20,000 bases of DNA from IMG/VR virus record IMGVR_UViG_3300047673_000475; one strand, given 5' to 3'. The notes beneath the pieces were generated by a model that was given only the letters and a program-made list of their open reading frames with translations, made no database searches and had not been told where the DNA came from. Origin of the DNA: an uncultured virus (IMG/VR IMGVR_UViG_3300047673_000475) (taxonomy: Duplodnaviria; Heunggongvirae; Uroviricota; Caudoviricetes). Of the stretch, positions 5,898 to 20,000 are shown piece by piece (positions within the stretch are counted from its first letter, which is position 1; every line of letters starts with the position of its first letter). The translations under genes were made by a program, and so were the position numbers.

Positions 5898-6490
5898 GGG
5901 TTCTTTCCTTAGGGAGTAGGAACGGAATTGGAGATTCACAGTATTGCTATCTACAGGATAAAAGATCCTGCTGCGTGCGGTGCATAACAAGATAGGGGAA
6001 CACGATAAAAACCCGCCCGCCGCGCCCCTAAGACGGGTTTGCAACGCTGGGCGGGTTTTCGACCATGCGGTGTCATTCATCAACAATACAATCCAATACC
6101 TATCCAAAACTATCTCTGTCGCTGCGCTCGTGCTTTGCTTCCTCTCCCTAGCGCGCCAGCGCTCACTCTCTAGGTTGACAAACCCCGGTCTAAACTTTTT
6201 AAAAAGGGGAAGGGGGACCAAGCCCCTTCCCCGATAAGTTAATATCGGGTTTAGAAGCTAAGTACTTGATTTATAAGGATAAAGTAAAAAAATACTGTGT
6301 AGGAACTTAGATATGTGTCAAGGAGCAGAGGCGACGCGGAGCGAAGCGGAGGAAGAGAATTAAGCGTAGAGAGGGGCGGAGCCCCTCTCTTTATTATTCC
6401 CTAGAAAGGAATACTCCCTGGAGTCATACTCTGTAAGAATAGAATATTTAATTACAAGACCAGACTGAGCCGGGCACAGTAGCCTGGCTC

Positions 6491-6560
6491 TTATGCCGCT
6501 GAGTCGTGATCCTAGAAAGATTCAACCATATATTCTCCCGGCGAGCACAAGCAAGTAAAG
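6491..6560 (+). promoter_or_regulatory. Putative phage early promoter, copy 1 (AAAGATTCAACCA-TATATTCT), in a ~70-bp imperfect direct repeat
   Basis: Strongly similar to 7218-7290. The TATATT core resembles the phiKZ early promoter motif TATATTAC. Confidence 0.7.
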
Positions 6561-7339: not shown

Positions 7340-7603
7340 ATGTCGCAAAACAAGCCCTTTCGCTTCGTTCGTCCGGACCACCTCTTTCGCAAGTCTGAAG
7401 CGAAGGACCATACGCCGAAGCGCAGGCAACTCCTGGACATCTACGACATCGAAGAAATGTCAGTGTTCGAGGAGGTTCAGGAAGTCTCGCTGCGCCATGA
7501 GCTGAATCTGCCTGAGCAGTTCGGCTTAGCAGAGGAGACCTCCTTCGGCTACACTGAAGCCTGGTCGAGTGACGCCCTCGATGCACTCTTCGCAGCCGAG
7601 TAA
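7340..7603 (+). CDS. Hypothetical early protein (87 aa; basic N-terminus, acidic C-terminus)
   Basis: GGAG SD before the ATG at 7340 (MSQNKPFRF...); terminator-like hairpin follows. Confidence 0.75.
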   Translation: MSQNKPFRFVRPDHLFRKSEAKDHTPKRRQLLDIYDIEEMSVFEEVQEVSLRHELNLPEQFGLAEETSFGYTEAWSSDALDALFAAE

Positions 7604-7615
7604 GCTGTAGTACCG

Positions 7616-7645
7616 ACAGGGGAGAGAAGATGCTCCCCTGTTTTT
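7616..7645 (+). terminator. Rho-independent terminator
   Basis: ACAGGGGAG...CTCCCCTGT followed by TTTT. Confidence 0.7.
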
Positions 7646-7681
7646 GAATACCCCCTACATTTAAACAAGGAAGCAAAAGCC

Positions 7682-11995: not shown

Positions 11996-12005
11996 GCCGC
12001 TACAG

Positions 12006-12043
12006 CGGCATACGGGCAGCCCTAGGGCTGCCCGCTATGACCG
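12006..12043. terminator. Hairpin between convergent genes, TATGCCG on the minus strand and TATGACCG on the plus strand
   Basis: The palindrome CGGGCAGCCCTAGGGCTGCCCG (12013-12034) lies between the stops at 11995 and 12046. Confidence 0.7.
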
Positions 12044-12045
12044 TG

Positions 12046-12849
12046 TTACCGATAGCCACCAATCAAACTGCGTACAAAGCGGTTAAACGTTTCGTTGTCG
12101 TTCATGTACGCCACCTTCTGCCAGGTGGTGGCGAGGAACTCCTGATACTGTTCTTCCGCGTCCTTGTACTCCTCGACGATTTCCTTGAACTTACCGATTT
12201 CCTGACCACCCCGGATCTTGCCGATGTCCACCTCGATGACTTGGTCATTGTAGATGTAGGCTTTCACCGCGAGTTCCACCAGCCGACAGAACGGCCGGTA
12301 GCTGCGCATCTGGATGTGCGACATGTTCTCGTCATTGGCGAGAATACAGCGCAGATACACATCAGGGGGCAGCACTATGGTGTCGCGCACCATGATCGTG
12401 TTTTCCCCGATCAACTGCACGCGATGCGTTGAGGTCACGGGCAAGGCCCCGTAGGCGTCCATCACGGCCTGTCCGGCTTGCAGCATGGTCGTGTTCTGCG
12501 CACCCGCGGCCACCCCGTAGCTTGAGACTTTGGTGGGGTCGGCGAACGTGATGTTCAGCACCGACAGAATCGAGCGCCCCTGCGTCTTGGTCTTCGGGAT
12601 GCGATACACCGACGTATAGTCGTTCATCCGCTCGTACGGAATATCGTCCAGATAGACGAATGCTTCCGTGCCACCCACGAGATTGCAGTCCACCAGGACA
12701 CGAGGGCGGACCACTTGTTCCAAAATACATTCGTCGATCGAACGCGGGGCTGTGCGCCAACGGGCCGTGCGCTCGACAAACACCTCTTCCAATACACGCC
12801 GTGGAATCCGGAACTTCAGATCATCCACAGCTCGGGTGATAGGATTCAC
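12046..12849 (-). CDS. Conserved jumbo-phage protein, probably virion structural (phiKZ gp42-like), 267 aa
   Basis: GTG start with a GGAGG SD. The N-terminus (NPITRAVDDLKFRIPRRVLE...VRPRVLVDCNLVGG), C-terminus (AVKAYIYN...GG.EIGKFKEIVEEY.DAEEQY) and location near phuZ recall this family; from memory. Confidence 0.65.
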   Translation of the reverse strand: MNPITRAVDDLKFRIPRRVLEEVFVERTARWRTAPRSIDECILEQVVRPRVLVDCNLVGGTEAFVYLDDIPYERMNDYTSVYRIPKTKTQGRSILSVLNITFADPTKVSSYGVAAGAQNTTMLQAGQAVMDAYGALPVTSTHRVQLIGENTIMVRDTIVLPPDVYLRCILANDENMSHIQMRSYRPFCRLVELAVKAYIYNDQVIEVDIGKIRGGQEIGKFKEIVEEYKDAEEQYQEFLATTWQKVAYMNDNETFNRFVRSLIGGYR

Positions 12850-12903
12850 TCTAGGCCTCCGCTCAAAAAAAGAATCTACATAGGATCGCGTGTTAAAAGT
12901 CGA

Positions 12904-12930
12904 TTGAAAACAATTTCAGACCTATATTAC
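12904..12930 (+). promoter_or_regulatory. Putative phage early promoter, copy 3 (TTGAAAACAATTTCAGACC-TATATTAC)
   Basis: Exact TATATTAC (the phiKZ early consensus) at 12923-12930; upstream part matches 7238-7256. Confidence 0.75.
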
Positions 12931-12986
12931 GCACGTAGACAGAAGCAGAAGCTTCTAAGATTATCTAACCTATCAGGAGCATTACC

Positions 12987-13397
12987 ATGAACAACGTTGC
13001 TAACATCAAGGCTTACGCAGCTAACCTCTCCGCTCTCGTGTACATGAACAAGCACTATGTGGTGGACGAAGTGTCCACCGATGGCGCTACTATCCTGTAC
13101 CGTGTGTCGCAAAACGCCAACGGTGACTTCGTGATTGAAGGATTTCGCGCATCGATGGCTGATGGCGCAAACAAGACTTTCAAGGGCGAACTCGAAGCTG
13201 GCGTGCTGTGGGCCGGTTCCAAGCGCAAGGTGTTTGACTACCTGAACGCGAAGGATCGCCAATCGACGGAACTCACCCCGCTCGAAATGCACTTCCATGA
13301 ATCGAAGTTTGAAGAGTTCTTCATCGCTGAACACAAGCCGATGTCGACCCTCATCATCACGGCTGACGTCCTGAGCTCGGAAGCGGTTGCAGTCTAA
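12987..13397 (+). CDS. Hypothetical early protein (136 aa), monocistronic
   Basis: AGGAG SD; has its own promoter and terminator. Confidence 0.8.
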   Translation: MNNVANIKAYAANLSALVYMNKHYVVDEVSTDGATILYRVSQNANGDFVIEGFRASMADGANKTFKGELEAGVLWAGSKRKVFDYLNAKDRQSTELTPLEMHFHESKFEEFFIAEHKPMSTLIITADVLSSEAVAV

Positions 13398-13398
13398 G

Positions 13399-13425
13399 GT
13401 GCCCGTTTCACCACGGGCATTTTTT
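13399..13425 (+). terminator. Rho-independent terminator
   Basis: GTGCCCGT-TTCACC-ACGGGCAT followed by TTTTT. Confidence 0.8.
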
Positions 13426-13483
13426 ACGAGCACATCCCCTACTATGTAGGAGTGCTTCAATTTGAAAAAACTAGGAAAGAAAC

Positions 13484-14488
13484 ATGTCCGAAATCATCGA
13501 GAAAGTCAAAGGTCGTATCAGCATCTACGCAGCGGGCGGAGCTGGCACGAACATTGCGACGCGCTTCGAGAAGTACCGCGGTAAAGCACAAGCTGGCATG
13601 GCTGTCGTCGAGCCGACGTATATCGACACCAGCAAGTCGAACATGCTCAACGCGAACATCGATGCGAACGCGATCTACCACTTCCAGGGCCTCGACGGTT
13701 CTGGACAAGTGCGCCGCGAACATGCCGCTGTCGTGAAGGAACGCGTCAAGGAAATCCTGCACGCGCACAAGCCGGGTAACCTGGCACTGGTGTTGCATTC
13801 GGCGTCGGGTGGTTCGGGTTCGGTGATCGGCCCGATTCTTACGCAAGAGCTGCTCGCACGTGACGTGCCGGTGGTGGTGGTCATGGTGGGCGATGCCTCG
13901 ACCCGGCTGTACGCGGAGAACACGCTCAACACGATCAAGTCCTACGAAGCCATCGCCAAGGCCGCGGGCGCCCCGATCGTCATCGCCTATCTGCAGAACA
14001 CGCAAGACACCCCGCGCGCTGCGGTGGACGCTGAAATCGAAACCGTCGTGGTCGGCCTCGCTGCGCTCTTTAGCCGCGAGAACACCGAGCTCGATACACG
14101 TGACCTCTACAACTGGTTGCGCTTCGACAAGGTCACCACCTTCAAGCAGCCGATGCTCGCAGGCCTGCACATCGTCAAGAACGGCGAATCGCACGCTCAC
14201 GTGGGCAATGTCATCAGCGTTGCGACGCTGGCGAAAGCGGGCGCTGATGCGACGCTACCGTTCATGCCCGAAGTGCGCTTTCTCGGACTGTTCCCGGCCG
14301 ACATGCCCGAGAACATCGCCAAGGAATCGCCGGTGCATTACATCACGGGCGACCGGGTGATCCACGAAGCCGTGGCCAACGTGCAAAAGGTGCTCTCGCA
14401 CCTGAGCGAGGAACAGCAGTCGCGCGTCGCGCACAAGTCCATTCTGGGCGCAGGCGACCGTGCGGATGAAACGGGGCTGATCCTCTAA
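13484..14488 (+). CDS. phuZ: Phage tubulin PhuZ (tubulin/FtsZ-family GTPase), 334 aa
   Basis: AAGGAGTNIA (T1 loop), YIDTSKSN, GLDGSGQVRRE, SASGGSGSVIGP (tubulin signature), ELDTRDLYNW (T7-like loop), and a short acidic-hydrophobic tail ADETGLIL typical of PhuZ. AGGA SD. Confidence 0.93.
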   Translation: MSEIIEKVKGRISIYAAGGAGTNIATRFEKYRGKAQAGMAVVEPTYIDTSKSNMLNANIDANAIYHFQGLDGSGQVRREHAAVVKERVKEILHAHKPGNLALVLHSASGGSGSVIGPILTQELLARDVPVVVVMVGDASTRLYAENTLNTIKSYEAIAKAAGAPIVIAYLQNTQDTPRAAVDAEIETVVVGLAALFSRENTELDTRDLYNWLRFDKVTTFKQPMLAGLHIVKNGESHAHVGNVISVATLAKAGADATLPFMPEVRFLGLFPADMPENIAKESPVHYITGDRVIHEAVANVQKVLSHLSEEQQSRVAHKSILGAGDRADETGLIL

Positions 14489-14524
14489 CAACAACGCTGG
14501 ACGACACGATAAGGAAAGCAATAA

Positions 14525-15170
14525 GAACCGATGTTTAGCCAGATCAGCTCTCTGGCCCGGTGGTGGTGGTCTGACTTTGGACGGTTTATCTATCACGATT
14601 TTTCGTGGTTCCCGTCCATTCAGGCCGCCGCCACTCGTAAAGTTCATCGGTCCTCACCCTTGCAGGCGCATGCGAGGGTGAATAGACATCATGCGCGACG
14701 TCCCCAGCTGGGGAAGGCAACGCGAGCTAAGGGTGCTCGTAGTACCTTCAGCCATTGAGGCGATGCGCTTGGCCCGTTGACTCGGACCGATGATTTGGCC
14801 ATGCGCAGACTTTAGTCCCATTCCAGCCGAACCGCGCATCAGGCGCAGGGGGTGCATCGGGGGCTAGGGTCTTTTACATTCCGTGAGTAATGGCCTGCCG
14901 CCTACTGGTGCGCAGGAGGCAATAAGTGCGACAGTTTTCAAGGGAGTACCCGAAGCAATTGTTTAGAGGTCCATGGACTGTCTAAAAATTAGCACTAGGG
15001 CCTAACACTTGGCTCGCAGCTTGAGATGTCCAGACCGCCTCAGTTCCGACCGCAACAATACCACAGTCCGTTTTACGGGTAGCTGTTTGGGTGAGCATCG
15101 GACGAGGCGAGTCCCTTTTATGCCTTCCTACGGGAGGGTGCAAAAGGGACTGATTATTTTTTTATGCCGC
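14525..15170 (+). ncRNA. Candidate large structured non-coding RNA 1 (family unknown)
   Basis: Nested stems found by eye: 14527-33/14645-51, 14560-74/14620-34 (15 bp, 3 G-U), 14578-84/14612-18, 14654-64/14671-81, 14685-90/15025-30, 14762-68/14834-40, 15036-41/15104-09, 15110-19/15142-51. No convincing CDS. Confidence 0.6.
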
Positions 15171-15228
15171 AGTTACACAAATAGTCAAAACAAACGTAGC
15201 CGCTGGATACTGTGTATAAGGAGCCGCC

Positions 15229-15636
15229 ATGAACCTCTTAACCGTCGAACCTAGGGCGCTATTGATCCAGGAGATCCATGACTTCCTGAGCGTCTTAAAG
15301 GGCGCTACGAGGGCAGTTGCGAGTCAACTGATCTTCTCCGGGTTGACTGAAGAGCGCTTAATCGAATGGATCGTCAAAGAACAGATTGAGCAGGTGTATC
15401 ATTTGTTCTCGGTGAACCACGACCCGCAGGACTGGCGCTTTGCCCGACTGCATGCCCAGATCCGCTCCGAGTTGGACCTGGATTACTACACCGGCCAATA
15501 CATCAAGGTGCCGCAGCTGTACGGCGACAACTGCTTCATCGACTTAGAAATCCGCGGGATTGACTTGTACATGTGGTACTACGTGCACAATCGCCCTGCC
15601 AATACGAACTACGACTACCAAAGAAAATGGAACTGA
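15229..15636 (+). CDS. Hypothetical protein, array member A (135 aa)
   Basis: TAAGGAG SD; overlaps the next gene. Confidence 0.8.
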   Translation: MNLLTVEPRALLIQEIHDFLSVLKGATRAVASQLIFSGLTEERLIEWIVKEQIEQVYHLFSVNHDPQDWRFARLHAQIRSELDLDYYTGQYIKVPQLYGDNCFIDLEIRGIDLYMWYYVHNRPANTNYDYQRKWN

Positions 15637-16436
15637 AAATCACTGGAACGCTGGTGCTGGATCTGGGAGACTGGGTCGACGCGGTGGAAGCTGCCGCAGG
15701 TCCCTACATGTTGCCCAATCCGGAAGGCTTGTACCTGCCGACTCAGTGTGAGCCGGTGATGGTCGCGGGACAGCCGTATTTCTACGCAGGTGAAGCGGTC
15801 AACAATGTCGCCACACCGATCCCGATTACGTCTTTCGAGTTGCCGTTGCGCGACGAAGTCTACGATGCGAAAGCCGATCTGGTCGTACCCAAGGTGCATC
15901 TGCCGTATCTGAAGCCGCAGTCACGCTTTTCACTGCGCGCACGCAATTTGCTCATCGAGCTGATTGACCACATGGTGATCAACCATGCGAAGTGGTCCAG
16001 CCAAGGCCGGATTCGTCGCGGCCACAAGAAGCTGAATTTCGACGCGGTGATCCGTCCGTTTCTTTTCGAGCAGTTCCAGCGCTCGGGCATCACGGTCGAT
16101 TCGGTGTTCCAGTATCCGAAAGATCCGAATGACGCCAATTTTAGCTGGGGGGAAACCGGCAACATCGTCGCCGTGGAGCATGAACCCACGGATGACCTGG
16201 GCCGCGCGCGCATCTCGGAACAGGACAAGCAACTTTTTTACGCGTCGCAGGAGATCTGTGAGAGCATCACGCTGCAATTGAGCGACATGCTACATCAGTT
16301 GACAGACTTCTTGGGACAAGATCGCTGGATCATGCACTTCATGAAAGTGGATAACACGGTGGTGCGGGTGGAAAAGACCATCGACTATCGGATCTATTCG
16401 TGGATGATGGAGCACGGCCGCGATTTTGAAGATTAA
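15627..16436 (+). CDS. Hypothetical protein, array member B (269 aa)
   Basis: ATG at 15627 (MELKITG...) overlaps the end of A; C-terminal EKTIDYRIYSW. Confidence 0.8.
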   Translation: MELKITGTLVLDLGDWVDAVEAAAGPYMLPNPEGLYLPTQCEPVMVAGQPYFYAGEAVNNVATPIPITSFELPLRDEVYDAKADLVVPKVHLPYLKPQSRFSLRARNLLIELIDHMVINHAKWSSQGRIRRGHKKLNFDAVIRPFLFEQFQRSGITVDSVFQYPKDPNDANFSWGETGNIVAVEHEPTDDLGRARISEQDKQLFYASQEICESITLQLSDMLHQLTDFLGQDRWIMHFMKVDNTVVRVEKTIDYRIYSWMMEHGRDFED

Positions 16437-16463
16437 CAGAGCGCGTGGCGGGGATGAGTAGAG

Positions 16464-16931
16464 ATGAAAAGCAGTACGGTGATTTCGCTGCTGGATGTGG
16501 GCATGTTCGTGCAACGCGAGCTGGCTCTGTATCAAGCACGCAAGCGTAACCCACGCAATCCGGAAGCCGCACTTGATCCGAACTGGAGAAGCTACGACAG
16601 TGGCCCGCTCCTGGAAGCCTTGCTCAAGGACGTGTTTGACAACACGTGTGAGGCGCATCCTTCCGAATACCTGGTCGCGGCCAAAGCCCTGTTGCAGAAT
16701 TCGGGCATGAATCATAATGCCGCGCACCAGTTATGCAACCGTGCGTTTGACATGATCGTCGATTACATCGGCGCGGTGTTGCCGCACCTGAAAATAAACG
16801 ATACGTCGACCCAGGCGTACGCTGATCTTACGGGCTCGTGGGATGTGGTGGTGACGGAATTCCCGAACTACATGGACACGATTGAACGCCTCCCGATGGA
16901 AGATCTCATCAACGCGCCCGTACGACTATAA
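16464..16931 (+). CDS. Hypothetical protein, array member C (155 aa)
   Basis: Packed in the operon; purine-rich SD-like leader. Confidence 0.75.
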   Translation: MKSSTVISLLDVGMFVQRELALYQARKRNPRNPEAALDPNWRSYDSGPLLEALLKDVFDNTCEAHPSEYLVAAKALLQNSGMNHNAAHQLCNRAFDMIVDYIGAVLPHLKINDTSTQAYADLTGSWDVVVTEFPNYMDTIERLPMEDLINAPVRL

Positions 16932-16969
16932 GTAACAGGTCATTACAATCGAAACAAGGAATAGCAACC

Positions 16970-17455
16970 ATGTCCGTTTTCATATTGCCGACGTGTGATC
17001 TGATCACGGAATCCATGGTGTACGATGAGTTGTTCAAGCTCTTTCTGAAGGGCGGTGTGCATTCCGTCGTGAAGAATGCAGTCTTGGGTACGTCGTTTCA
17101 GGAAACCTCGCCGTACACTGAGTACCAGCGCTCGCTGCAGCATCACCACAGTGAGTTGGTGGATTTCGTGTTGAAGAAGTTTGACAGTTACGTTAACCGG
17201 CGTCATGAACAGTTCGATGAGCGTACGGGCCGTATCAAACATACGTCCGTGGACTTAAGCGAATACATGAGCCGGGTGGGTGAGCTGGAGATGATCACGC
17301 AATCCATTGAAGAGCAAGTATTGCTCATCATGCAAGATCTCTTTAGCACTCGACCTTACCAGATCGATGACCAAAGTCCGCGCTGGATCGGTCGAGATCT
17401 GGTGGTGGGTATCGAGGTCCTCACCAACAATTGGGGAAAACGCCGTGTATACTGA
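16970..17455 (+). CDS. Hypothetical protein, array member D (161 aa)
   Basis: AAGGA SD, ATG. Confidence 0.8.
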   Translation: MSVFILPTCDLITESMVYDELFKLFLKGGVHSVVKNAVLGTSFQETSPYTEYQRSLQHHHSELVDFVLKKFDSYVNRRHEQFDERTGRIKHTSVDLSEYMSRVGELEMITQSIEEQVLLIMQDLFSTRPYQIDDQSPRWIGRDLVVGIEVLTNNWGKRRVY

Positions 17456-17900
17456 AAACCTATTGATCGACTTCACGCAAGAGATCCATGGGTTTCTGCG
17501 CGTGGCGACCCAGCCTTTTCGTCCGCCCTTTGATTTGAGCGAAGTGCTGGCGAGCGTGTTTGGCGCAATTAGCGTGTATGATTGTGCAGAGTCTGAGCTC
17601 ACGGAAGTGGCGATCGTACTGGCATACGACTGCGGCTACCAGGAGTTCCGCATCGAGGAAGCCGATATTCCCCGTGGTCCTCATCGCGATATGTTTGAAG
17701 CCGTGATGAAGATGGGACTCGCCATGCGAGATCGGTTGCGCTTTGAGTACAACGCTTATCTGCCGCCTGACGGCTATTTTCCCTATCTTTTTGCGGAGGT
17801 CCACAGTGACCATCTTGTCCGGTTTGCCAAGGCCGATTTTGAGGAGTTCGGTCAACCGCCAGCCTCCTTCGACCTTTTTGGTTCTGGATACCGACTCTGA
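17445..17900 (+). CDS. Hypothetical protein, array member E (151 aa, GTG start)
   Basis: GGGGA SD; GTG at 17445 overlaps the end of D. Confidence 0.75.
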   Translation: MYTENLLIDFTQEIHGFLRVATQPFRPPFDLSEVLASVFGAISVYDCAESELTEVAIVLAYDCGYQEFRIEEADIPRGPHRDMFEAVMKMGLAMRDRLRFEYNAYLPPDGYFPYLFAEVHSDHLVRFAKADFEEFGQPPASFDLFGSGYRL

Positions 17901-18282
17901 GTTGGCCACGCTGCTGTGGAAAGCTCGAGATCTGGAGTCATTGATTCCGGATACGCCCGTCATGCTGGTGGATAAGTTTCCCCACACGGTGATGGACATG
18001 GTCGCCCAGATCGTGATGGAGTCGATCCACTACGAGCGCACAGCCCGTGATGAGTTGAACTTCGCCTGTGCCGAGATGTTCCTGAATGAATTGGGTTCCT
18101 CGTGCGAGGACTCGTATCGGCGTTTTGCCGGGCTCTTGAATCGCTTTGGCGAAGAGGTGCTCGAGAAGCTGCGCATGATGCGGGCCTACCAGAACGGTTA
18201 CCTGTATTATCAGTTCCACGACTGGCTCGGTCGTGACATGGTGCTGCGACACCTGCATGCTGAGCACATCCCTAACCTGTGA
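17878..18282 (+). CDS. Hypothetical protein, array member F (~134 aa; start uncertain)
   Basis: Open frame overlapping the end of E, with TTG at 17878 or 17902. Clear similarity to the C-termini of E and G. Confidence 0.7.
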   Translation: MVLDTDSELATLLWKARDLESLIPDTPVMLVDKFPHTVMDMVAQIVMESIHYERTARDELNFACAEMFLNELGSSCEDSYRRFAGLLNRFGEEVLEKLRMMRAYQNGYLYYQFHDWLGRDMVLRHLHAEHIPNL

Positions 18283-18289
18283 ATTGACT

Positions 18290-18691
18290 ATGGCAAACGA
18301 GCATTACAGCAGACTCATGATCGTTGAGACGGCGGATCTCTGGGCGCAGTTTCTGTTTGAAGTGCAAGGTTTGCCTATTCACTTCAACGATAAGCGCGAA
18401 ATCATCACGCAGATCTTCGAAGTGTTTTTGGACTATTCAGCAAACGGTCCTGCCCGACTCGAGGCGCTGCCCATTACCAATCGTATAGTAGACCCGGTTT
18501 ATGAAAACACGGCGTCTAGCGAGTATCAGCGATTGCGGGCAGCGGTTCAAAATCTGGCACAGAGTGTGTACGCGCGTCTCGAGGGATTGCGTGGACTACG
18601 TACAGGAGCGGCCGGTAGCGGCTACGGCTTCCCGTACTACGTCCACCAGTTTCTCGGTGACGACGTGATTTTGGATCACCTGCCCTTCTGA
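18290..18691 (+). CDS. Hypothetical protein, array member G (133 aa)
   Basis: ATG at 18290, 7 nt after the stop of F. Confidence 0.75.
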   Translation: MANEHYSRLMIVETADLWAQFLFEVQGLPIHFNDKREIITQIFEVFLDYSANGPARLEALPITNRIVDPVYENTASSEYQRLRAAVQNLAQSVYARLEGLRGLRTGAAGSGYGFPYYVHQFLGDDVILDHLPF

Positions 18692-18725
18692 TCTTTTTTT
18701 TTTGTTCATTTGGGCACGGGAAACC

Positions 18726-19127
18726 ATGGCTTACAATTTTGCTATCGGGCAGACGTACTCGTTTAACGTCTATCCGCCTCTGCTGGGCAGCGACTGGCAG
18801 AACGTCAAGGTCACCTCGGTGATGTCGTACGAAGACGCGATGAAGGACGAAGACATGACGTCCTTGCACGTGCAGTTCTATCCGTTCTTCGGTCCGCAGA
18901 CCCACACGCCGAACGATCCGGCCGCGTACCTGTACATCAAGGTCAAGACGCAAAACGGCAACACCCAAATTCTGGGTGTGGCATGGATTGACGACTCGTC
19001 CGTGACGCTCGTCACAGCGCAGACCATCACGGCGACCATCGCCCAGGTGACCCCGCAGGACATTCCGAAGGTTCAGGCTATTTTGGCCGCCAACGGTTAC
19101 AACTTCGTTACGGTAGCGATCAAGTAA
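18726..19127 (+). CDS. Conserved jumbo-phage beta-rich protein (probably phiKZ gp49-like), 133 aa
   Basis: ATG at 18726 (MAYNFAIGQTYSFNVYPPLLG...ILGVAWIDDSSV) with a GGGA SD and strong codon bias. Its position before the polymerase matches my recollection of phiKZ-family synteny. Confidence 0.65.
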   Translation: MAYNFAIGQTYSFNVYPPLLGSDWQNVKVTSVMSYEDAMKDEDMTSLHVQFYPFFGPQTHTPNDPAAYLYIKVKTQNGNTQILGVAWIDDSSVTLVTAQTITATIAQVTPQDIPKVQAILAANGYNFVTVAIK

Positions 19128-19219
19128 ACGTGGGTTTACCCTAGTTAATTTATATCGCCCATCCGTAATGTTCTGAAGAGAAAGGCCCGGCAAGCCTGTA
19201 CCCTCATCGACAGCAGACC

Positions 19220-19640
19220 TCCTCCTGACTGGTGCCGATAAGGACTCTCGCGCGAGCCCTCCCGCGGGCTACCGCGCCGTATGCCTAGACGCGGGGCTGG
19301 CTTATTCACGCTGCTGGGGTTTCCTCCTTGTTTCCCCTGGCACCAGCGTTTCCTCGTACATCGATCCTACTCCTATCGCTGCTCTGCGCCTCCGCAAGCG
19401 CTCTTTGGCGAATATAGGAGTCTCCTGTGGAAGTTGGTCGATCGCGTGGATTAAGAGTAAGCTGGCCCCTGTCTATCTCGATTTTGGTTGAAGTGGTAGT
19501 GGTAGTAGAGTCTCTGTGGCTCCGAATTGATCGGGCATGTTCAGTGACTGGTTTTCCTTTTCGGTACTTGTAACGACCTGTATTTAGGCGAGGTGGCGGC
19601 CCGAAACCGCTCCTCGCCCTTTTTTCCTTTTTATGCCGCT
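19220..19640 (+). ncRNA. Candidate structured non-coding RNA 2 (family unknown)
   Basis: Nested stems: 19243-48/19507-12, 19268-75/19493-500, 19286-90/19471-75, 19293-307/19455-69 (15 bp, 3 G-U), 19308-13/19344-49, 19369-76/19414-21. Ends in a terminator-like hairpin 19587-19618, a U tract and TATGCCG. The ORF track shows no ORF inside it. Confidence 0.6.
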
Positions 19641-19694
19641 GATTCGTTTTTATTGGGCTCCTTGATCATGTAGGTCGACAAGGAGTAAAACAAA

Positions 19695-20000
19695 GTGTCA
19701 GAAGCGAACAACCCATTTGTACTGGCGCCTTCCCAGTACAAGCGCGATCTAAACGTCCTCGGCTATTATGTCCAGGACTGCGCGACCTATTTGCATCAAA
19801 TGACGGGGGCACCGATCGAGGACTGCACGACCTTTGTGAAAACGGAGATGCGTCCCGGCGGACAGTTTGAATTCAAGGACCCGAAGATCGTCTACCTCGA
19901 GCGTCAGGACAACGGTGACCGGGTCCAGATGGAAGGCACGCTGCAGGCCTACCTGAATGATTCGATCCGTAACAAAGAACTGATTGCGCCGACGCTCACC
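19695..20000 (+). CDS. N-terminus of a probable phiKZ gp50-like DNA polymerase subunit (truncated by the window edge)
   Basis: AAGGAG SD, GTG at 19695, open to the end: MSEANNPFVLAPSQYKRDLNVLGYYVQDCATYL...ERQDNGDR...LIAPTLT. The NPF...YKRDL start and synteny recall this family; no catalytic motif lies within the window. Confidence 0.6.
   Translation, partial: MSEANNPFVLAPSQYKRDLNVLGYYVQDCATYLHQMTGAPIEDCTTFVKTEMRPGGQFEFKDPKIVYLERQDNGDRVQMEGTLQAYLNDSIRNKELIAPTLT

Follow-up and report, generated by a model that had tools for sequence, protein, structure and literature searches.

Do the genes and the long intergenic segments lying between phuZ and the DNA polymerase gene of nucleus-forming phages belong to one system, or are they independent neighbours? 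The question is raised by a stretch of 20,000 nucleotides (nt) from an uncultured virus of the Caudoviricetes (IMG/VR IMGVR_UViG_3300047673_000475), the whole of which is called the window. On the + strand, the window carries phuZ, a gap (segment 1), seven coupled genes (A to G), a further gene (H), a second gap (segment 2) and the polymerase gene. A sequence-only reading had taken A-G for divergent paralogues whose products may bind or process two large structured RNAs. The best reading here is that the array is ancient and fast-diverging, and that the two flanking RNA elements are unrelated to each other and younger or faster-evolving. That the array and both RNA elements are three independent things in one conserved neighbourhood is given an even chance.

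Both segments are taken as real conserved RNA structures, presumably transcribed; among RNA sequencing runs, none containing them was listed, which is evidence neither way. Their homologues were drawn from IMG/VR and from Burkholderia phage FLC9, the named phage closest to the window; other loci are designated by numbers preceded by L. The identity of the window to FLC9 and L007 is 76% and 69% for segment 1, and 66% and 69% for segment 2 (phuZ, 68% and 70%; gene A, 63% and 62%). Two-sided changes affect 42 of the 197 pairs predicted for segment 1 (6 sequences aligned) and 27 of the 103 predicted for segment 2 (7 sequences aligned). Column shuffles gave 20.9 and 18.9, respectively, 0/500 reaching the observed count in either case; slid controls gave 4-7 and 3-8 such pairs. 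These counts lean upward because the alignments in which they were made also supplied the structures, and because only three or four lineages are represented. The heavy pairing proposed for both gaps is nevertheless borne out by the excess over shuffles. Folding energy by itself is not decisive for either segment (z scores: segment 1, -6.9; segment 2, -1.5 with flanks and -3.7 trimmed; coding controls, -3.3 for gene G and -0.6 to +1.4 for three others).

Neither segment was matched to a known RNA family. The covariance models of Rfam 15 (families covered include GOLLD, ROOL, OLE, tmRNA, RNase P, SRP, 6S, group I/II introns and CsrB) gave 0 matches at E<=5 in positions 12000-20000 of the window; in 4 relatives they gave only 3 matches elsewhere, all at chance level, and in 4 more only tRNAs. 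No tRNA or tmRNA was found in the window by ARAGORN, FLC9 alone was retrieved when both segments were compared with 50,697 phage records by blastn, and a sigma-70 promoter scan was uninformative. Likenesses to tmRNA, RNase P, 6S, hammerhead, group I/II intron and c-di-GMP RNAs, noted by eye, were rejected (unconserved among homologues, no Rfam match). No paper on these RNAs was found in literature searches, part of which returned mostly unrelated papers, hence a weak negative. Term searches in the accessible parts of PMC13282480, PMC7824862, 10.64898/2026.09.21.753271 and 10.64898/2026.10.21.760668 turned up neither the RNAs nor a paralogue block.

Segment 2 (19160..19638, +) is a structured non-coding element of ~470 nt, identified by covariation; its 5' end is placed according to a conserved block (19162-19178). 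One hairpin (19310..19347, +) exposes an anti-Shine-Dalgarno (anti-SD) sequence in its loop (~19320-19333). The opening cost is 0.8 kcal/mol, and the loop of the window beats 12/12 shuffles; an accessible anti-SD sequence is found, then, in a conserved loop. Other CU-rich stretches are present at 19218-19225, 19349-19359 and 19548-19564, and the G-U pairs seen by eye in the stems point to the + strand. The corresponding gaps, between the polymerase gene and the relative of phiKZ gp49 (gene H here), were scored when they reached ~300 nt or more (21 gaps out of 44 mapped; short gaps, gene-filled gaps and near-duplicates were left out). Anti-SD accessibility exceeds the mean of the gap's own shuffles in 17/21 and all 12 shuffles in 10/21. 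Among 19 of these gaps, 8 carry a hairpin-loop site at -10 kcal/mol or better, versus 0/110 control strands from other gaps in the same loci (Fisher p 5e-8). Loop-positive loci include genomes of 31-47% GC (L008, L034, L035, L057, L060, L061); Goslar has an accessible anti-SD site (-12.1) that is not classed as a hairpin loop.

The role proposed is that of a ~470-nt regulatory RNA, closed by a terminator of its own, in which a hairpin loop keeps the anti-SD sequence open. By pairing with the ribosome-binding sites (RBSs) of several mRNAs, possibly including that of the polymerase, it would lower their translation. The structure and the loop come from comparison, the mechanism is conjectural, and the whole is rated at slightly under an even chance. 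Several points weigh against it. The anti-SD probe and its cut-off were picked after the motif had been seen, and the window and FLC9 are related. The hairpin-loop test is failed by 11/19 gaps, and U-rich CC words like those of the loop also occur in terminator tails. No specific target of the loop was found among RBS regions within the fetched loci. A promoter-like pattern occurs downstream of gp49 in 8/21 phages and upstream of the polymerase in 8/21, and has no match in the window, so that segment 2 may be a 3' untranslated region (UTR). Minus-strand open reading frames (ORFs) behind reverse-strand SD-like words in segment 2 were considered and rejected, their frame not being kept (by eye).

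Segment 2 could act in cis instead, as a polymerase leader: upon terminator read-through, the loop would pair with the polymerase RBS (19678..19689, +) and gate polymerase synthesis. The loop-RBS duplex is worth -13.4 kcal/mol and ranks 3/23 among the RBS regions of the window, 1/12 in L007 and 4/17 in L057; the loop keeps a fixed place upstream of the polymerase, and in a few cases (L057, L061, L037) loop and RBS seem, by eye, to have changed together. Over 25 phages, however, the polymerase RBS is not preferred by the loop (mean relative rank 0.48; first in 2/25, with 1.2 expected). This ranking covers the RBS regions within fetched loci, the starts of other genes being chosen for the best SD, which makes it conservative. 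The loop should thus be regarded as a general anti-SD, not one shown to be polymerase-specific, a result that also counts against the polymerase as its main target. Moreover, a terminator separates the loop from the RBS, and several relatives have extra genes in between (gaps of 850-3160 nt), so that a leader appears unlikely. The same degree of doubt applies to a second alternative, in which the CU-rich loops are bound by an RNA-binding protein of phage or host, as a sponge or as an export or stability signal, their anti-SD look being incidental. The several CU-rich single-stranded words of each RNA, the similar words in terminator tails and the absence of target specificity are in its favour; strong SD complementarity is kept, however, across genomes of 31-59% GC.

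Segment 1, read earlier as ~650 nt of non-coding sequence, is non-coding in its 3' part only. An unannotated 75-codon ORF (14531..14758, +), whose ATG lies 43 nt downstream of the phuZ stop, is open in 6/6 homologues (74-81 amino acids, aa). The ratio of nonsynonymous to synonymous variation (pN/pS) is 0.06-0.69 in its own frame (15 pairs), similar to that of phuZ and A (0.38-0.46), versus 0.73-1.92 in the two other frames. Its variable columns are distributed 24/21/38 by codon position. The predicted product has a Trp-rich amphipathic N-terminus (hydrophobic moment 0.56), a basic C-terminus and an isoelectric point (pI) of 12. The codon signal indicates that segment 1 is partly coding and that this ORF is under purifying selection. 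Three points count against this: the RBS is weak; the last third has no codon signal (4/7/6), RNA constraint being dominant there; and neither a homologue in the protein collection nor a usable Atlas match was found. The ORF overlaps RNA helices. The 3' part (14759..15109, +) is a multi-helix structured RNA (covariation; z -2.0; z -5.2 and -6.1 with the terminator in two homologues), and the core of the segment is near-invariant.

The distribution of this RNA is narrow. The sole distant homologue of segment 1 is L029 (nhmmer E 9e-6), which carries an 86-codon ORF whose end is in the same frame (by eye). The covariance model of the segment-1 core gave, in 33 loci, a single match, to L029, a member of its training set. 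A pattern scan of viral contigs for the segment-1 hairpin returned 101 stretches, among which nhmmer found homology only in known contigs and in L193, a 621-nt near-identical locus. The 3' RNA is, by these searches, clade-restricted. Segment 1 would be a dual-function unit: a heavily folded mRNA for a small amphipathic peptide, followed by a clade-specific 3' RNA that would control the translation or the stability of the peptide. Coding signal and structure are observed; control of the peptide as the most likely role of the 3' RNA is put forward tentatively.

In further relatives, Trp-rich amphipathic ORFs are also found directly past phuZ (likeness judged by eye). They begin beyond the phuZ stop in L075 and L076, and overlap it in the +1 frame in six loci (L009:10997, L030:4743, L031:4796, L033:4780, L036:4453, L037:1010). 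The only starts of the +1-frame ORFs are GTG or TTG codons located inside phuZ; translational coupling and a +1 frameshift adding an amphipathic tail to PhuZ are both possible. A sister clade has a different covarying RNA past phuZ (L009:11130-11560, L030:4880-5375, L031, L033, L036:4590-5070, L037:1160-1680), with two-sided change in 23/64 pairs (rough alignment) and no Rfam match in the scanned loci. At the segment-1 site of L037 (4222-5879), 7 tRNA genes stand between phuZ and gene A. Since sister clades have other covarying RNAs there and one relative has 7 tRNAs, this site appears to be a hot spot for RNA elements. Upstream of gene A lies yet another long element, the third, structured and non-coding and of 600-900 nt (L030:5630-6400, L031, L033, L036:5780-6700, L009:13130-13710); it adjoins acyl-carrier-like and phosphatase-like ORFs (labels by eye).

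The array genes A-G probably form a tandem family of one fold, an assignment based on sequence for E-G, on sequence with less certainty for D, and on predicted fold for A. Position-matched profiles were compared by hhalign. Genes E (17445..17900, +; GTG start inferred), F (17839..18282, +; TTG start inferred) and G (18290..18691, +; 133 aa) are paralogues (E-F 98%, E-G 98%, F-G 98.5%). Gene D (16970..17455, +; 161 aa) is a probable one (D-G 82%, D-F 46%). Gene A (15229..15636, +; 135 aa) is the first of the array; A-B reaches 22%. Gene B (15627..16436, +; 269 aa) is a relative of phiKZ gp43 (jackhmmer E 1.4e-11 to PHIKZ043; hmmsearch E 1e-4; hhalign 26%). Gene C (16464..16931, +; 155 aa) has orthologues in relatives; every pair that includes it is below 2%, and its alignment to a deep EFG profile covers 109 columns with a probability of only 2%. 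Of the seven divergent paralogues announced earlier, E, F and G, probably D and, by predicted fold only, A are retained; paralogy is not shown for B and C.

The AlphaFold2 (AF2) models of A (beta-alpha4-beta-beta, mean confidence (pLDDT) 81.8) and G (beta-alpha-rich-beta-beta, 88.4) are alike: both begin with a strand, continue as a helical body and end in a beta-hairpin. They have 15 of their top 50 BFVD targets in common. Where named, these matches are almost all uncharacterised proteins from phiKZ-like phages, and match lengths fit array genes of RP12, Psa21, Noxifer, PhiPA3, Eowyn and RSL2. Against the single fold, only 2 (A) and 1 (G) BFVD matches have E<=0.001, and their assignment to arrays was made by phage name and length. 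Model G also matches RP12 (L011) proteins of 193, 216 and 148 aa, sizes unlike those of the array genes; further members of the fold family may thus be encoded outside the array. Fold searches of the PDB gave no clear match (best Z 5.5 for A and 5.9 for G), which shows neither a new fold nor the absence of one, and the F+G complex prediction (score 0.00 for a mark of 0.32) is evidence neither way.

The EFG profile retrieves 763 representatives at E<=0.001. With a deeper profile, 13/113 array proteins score above the best reversed decoy (RSL2, Xoo-sp14, RP12, DT01, RTH11, Moabite and D of the window; phiKZ gp45 is marginal), and 71/113 score better forward than reversed (p 3e-5). Every one of the A-G proteins is acidic (pI 4.5-5.7, net charge -5 to -13), as are most array proteins of named phages (pI below 6 in 91/110) and most profile matches (138/150). 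The PHROG matches of A-G are no better than E 0.059. According to annotation, a run of small genes precedes the gp49 relative in 16/16 named phages examined (RP12, phiKZ, FLC1-1B, Goslar, SNUABM_37, RAY, RSL2, PhiPA3, Eowyn, DT01, PA1C, Noxifer, Psa21, Moabite, Xoo-sp14, RTH11). The block was not found described as paralogues in the literature, a weak negative since part of the searching returned mostly unrelated papers. In phiKZ (L012:8858-9325), an unannotated ORF of ~142 aa lies between PHIKZ042 and PHIKZ043; by eye, it resembles the first array gene of PhiPA3, PA1C, Noxifer and Psa21.

The position of the array suggests a function. A-G occupy the place of phiKZ gp43-48, upstream of gp49. 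According to the accessible part of one study, this phiKZ block includes Imp2 (gp47), needed for import of the RecA-like gp152, and Imp4 (gp48), needed for that of TopA; both are called confined to Pseudomonas phages (10.1101/2024.03.27.586873). Like them, A-G would make contact with proteins on their way into the phage nucleus and serve these as cargo-specific adaptors or chaperones. Such a role, inferred from position, is the most likely one for the array and is credited with nearly even odds. Homology searches speak against it: hhalign probability to Imp2/Imp4 is 1.7% or less, and hidden Markov model (HMM) scores are 2.7 and 0.0 bits versus 5.5 for the best decoy. The same methods fail to link most phiKZ array genes to one another and therefore lack the reach for homology to Imp2/Imp4. 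Among the BFVD matches listed for A and G, none is identifiable as gp47 or gp48. The link to nucleus function guessed at earlier may hold for the proteins, through the position of Imp2/Imp4.

The hypothesis that A-G form a hetero-oligomer binding or processing both RNAs as one ribonucleoprotein (RNP) can now be weighed. Genes and RNAs are adjacent, both RNAs covary, long structured gaps often flank the same array in the wider clade, and the E-G paralogues belong to one tightly coupled run. The link is unsupported, however, because relatives keep the gene array without the long segments, an outcome that the sequence-only reading had itself named as refuting: the gap between gp49 and polymerase is 210 nt or less in 10/16 named phages. 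The co-occurrence of array and long segments that had been anticipated also fails on the other side, the segment-1 RNA model matching only its training member in the 33 loci. RNA families at these sites differ by sub-clade while the array is kept, and acidity is common to the seven proteins. Tolerance of transposon insertions varies among the phiKZ array genes: one table lists 11 in gp45, 9 in gp46 and none in gp43, gp47 and gp49; a second lists 22 and 19 in gp45 and gp46, 10 in gp43, 3 in gp47 and 3 in gp49 (PMC12676376, accessible part). This uneven tolerance is a poor fit with one obligate complex, and a single RNP is regarded as very improbable. Hardly more credit is given to both segments being large ornate RNAs of the GOLLD/ROOL/OLE kind, that is, RNA-only scaffolds. 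Their size, their dense pairing, the near-invariant core of segment 1 and the tRNA cluster at this site in one relative would agree with it; the lack of any Rfam match at E<=5, the narrow distribution and the coding third of segment 1 would not. Segment 1 could also be a type I toxin-antitoxin-like or lysis/superinfection-exclusion module, with a membrane-active peptide silenced by its own folded mRNA. The Trp-rich amphipathic small ORF is buried within helices, and some relatives come from Paraburkholderia/Caballeronia isolate assemblies, where a maintenance module would be useful. The peptide is amphipathic without a transmembrane segment (mean hydrophobicity near zero), no antisense partner was identified, and the small ORF has no database relative; such a module is judged improbable, if a little less so than the ornate RNAs. 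Independence of the array, the segment-1 unit and the segment-2 RNA remains the preferred reading.

A hairpin followed by a T-run and TATGCCG does close both segment 1 (15110..15169, +) and segment 2 (19587..19638, +), as had been noted, and is not special to them. TATGCC is present at 12 sites in the window, 7/12 of them behind a hairpin and T-run (by eye), and such terminators close unrelated genes on both strands. The intrinsic terminator of phiKZ is described as a stem-loop followed by TTAT (PMC10914365); both segment ends fit this type without difference and are, by their pattern, ordinary phiKZ-type terminators.

The locus itself is, by gene content and order, that of a phiKZ-like (Chimalliviridae-type, nucleus-forming) jumbo phage near FLC9. 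PhuZ, the phage tubulin (13484..14488, +; 334 aa; phrog_4733 E 1e-82), is 61% identical to FLC9 gp11. Gene H (18726..19127, +; 133 aa; phrog_3235 E 3e-32) is of the phiKZ gp49 family, matches PHIKZ049 and 146 phage records by tblastn, and is outside the paralogue family of the array; a small SH3-fold gene upstream of polymerases of the phiKZ-like type was reported by Iyer et al. (PMC7824862). The DNA polymerase gene (19695..20000, +; phrog_2927 E 2e-23) is cut by the window end, its 5' part being present. The phuZ, gp42-like, gp49-like and split-polymerase genes are in phiKZ-like order (PHROG, tblastn), and synteny is seen with FLC9, RP12, RAY and Goslar. The relationships of B to gp43 and of H to gp49 fix the synteny with the phiKZ block. 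FLC9 has the same layout (770-nt gap, seven small genes, 133-aa gene, 536-nt gap, polymerase). PHROG matches and ORF calls confirm the one-strand order given by the sequence-only reading, and PHROG, tblastn and synteny agree with its view of PhuZ and the polymerase as phiKZ-like core genes.

Elsewhere in the window, a 272-aa ORF (2142-2960, -) has an HNH-endonuclease-like motif judged by eye. Further intergenic stretches are found at 5913-6450 (~500 nt, AT-richer, terminator at 6492) and 7600-7680; FLC9 has a 720-nt gap at a place similar to the former. In L102, L103 and L104, phiKZ-like core genes are on contigs of 144-286 kb from Paraburkholderia and Caballeronia isolate assemblies; a prophage, plasmid-like or carrier state of nucleus-forming phages is possible.

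The proposals for segment 2 and for the array can be combined. The RNA, fast-evolving and placed just before the polymerase gene, would mimic, in its open loop, the 3' end of 16S rRNA and so re-rank translation among SD-led mRNAs (host or early phage), and the array would be an import-adaptor family with one paralogue per cargo, Imp2/Imp4 included. As a joint statement this is rather unlikely; if true, every phage-nucleus lineage would have an importin-like gene family, and phages would control translation in a way that is new. The adaptor reading bears on how the phage nucleus selects its cargo; Imp2/Imp4 have been regarded as a feature of Pseudomonas phages alone. Should the block from phuZ to gp49 be one fold family throughout, a short list of candidate adaptors becomes available for every nucleus-forming phage. 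Few phage non-coding RNAs are known; a position-conserved RNA with an anti-SD loop is directly testable, with a similar motif in the E. coli phage Goslar. The peptide gene behind phuZ is absent from the annotation of FLC9.

Staphylococcal RNAIII and the RsaE-type small RNAs have C-rich anti-SD loops, and RNAIII encodes an amphipathic peptide. Segment 2 resembles them in its length, its structure and its exposed CU-rich loops, which could pair with RBSs, and segment 1 resembles RNAIII in encoding an amphipathic peptide. The elements described here differ in being phage-encoded and in having no sequence or Rfam similarity to these RNAs; unlike in RNAIII, peptide and loops belong to two separate elements. 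GOLLD, ROOL and OLE, as far as their accessible descriptions go, are likewise several hundred nucleotides long, densely paired and of unknown function; the segments differ from them in lacking an Rfam match, in being clade-restricted and, for segment 1, in being partly coding. In phiKZ, UTR-derived non-coding RNAs of 100 and 180 nt (PHIKZ298 3' UTR, p40 5' UTR) were detected by Northern blot (PMC8545117, accessible part). They are, like the segments, structured, non-coding, intergenic and from a nucleus-forming phage; they are from other loci and much shorter. The closest parallel for the proteins is the phiKZ gp43-gp49 block. It differs in its gp49-polymerase gap of just 201 nt and in the absence of a found sequence link between A-G and Imp2/Imp4, and the accessible text on Imp2/Imp4 does not describe it as paralogues (10.1101/2024.03.27.586873). 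Its position before gp49 and the polymerase and the number and size of its small acidic genes are the same as here, B is related to gp43 and H to gp49, and the proteins matched by model A in PhiPA3, Psa21, Noxifer and 201phi2-1 have lengths that suit a phiKZ-type block.

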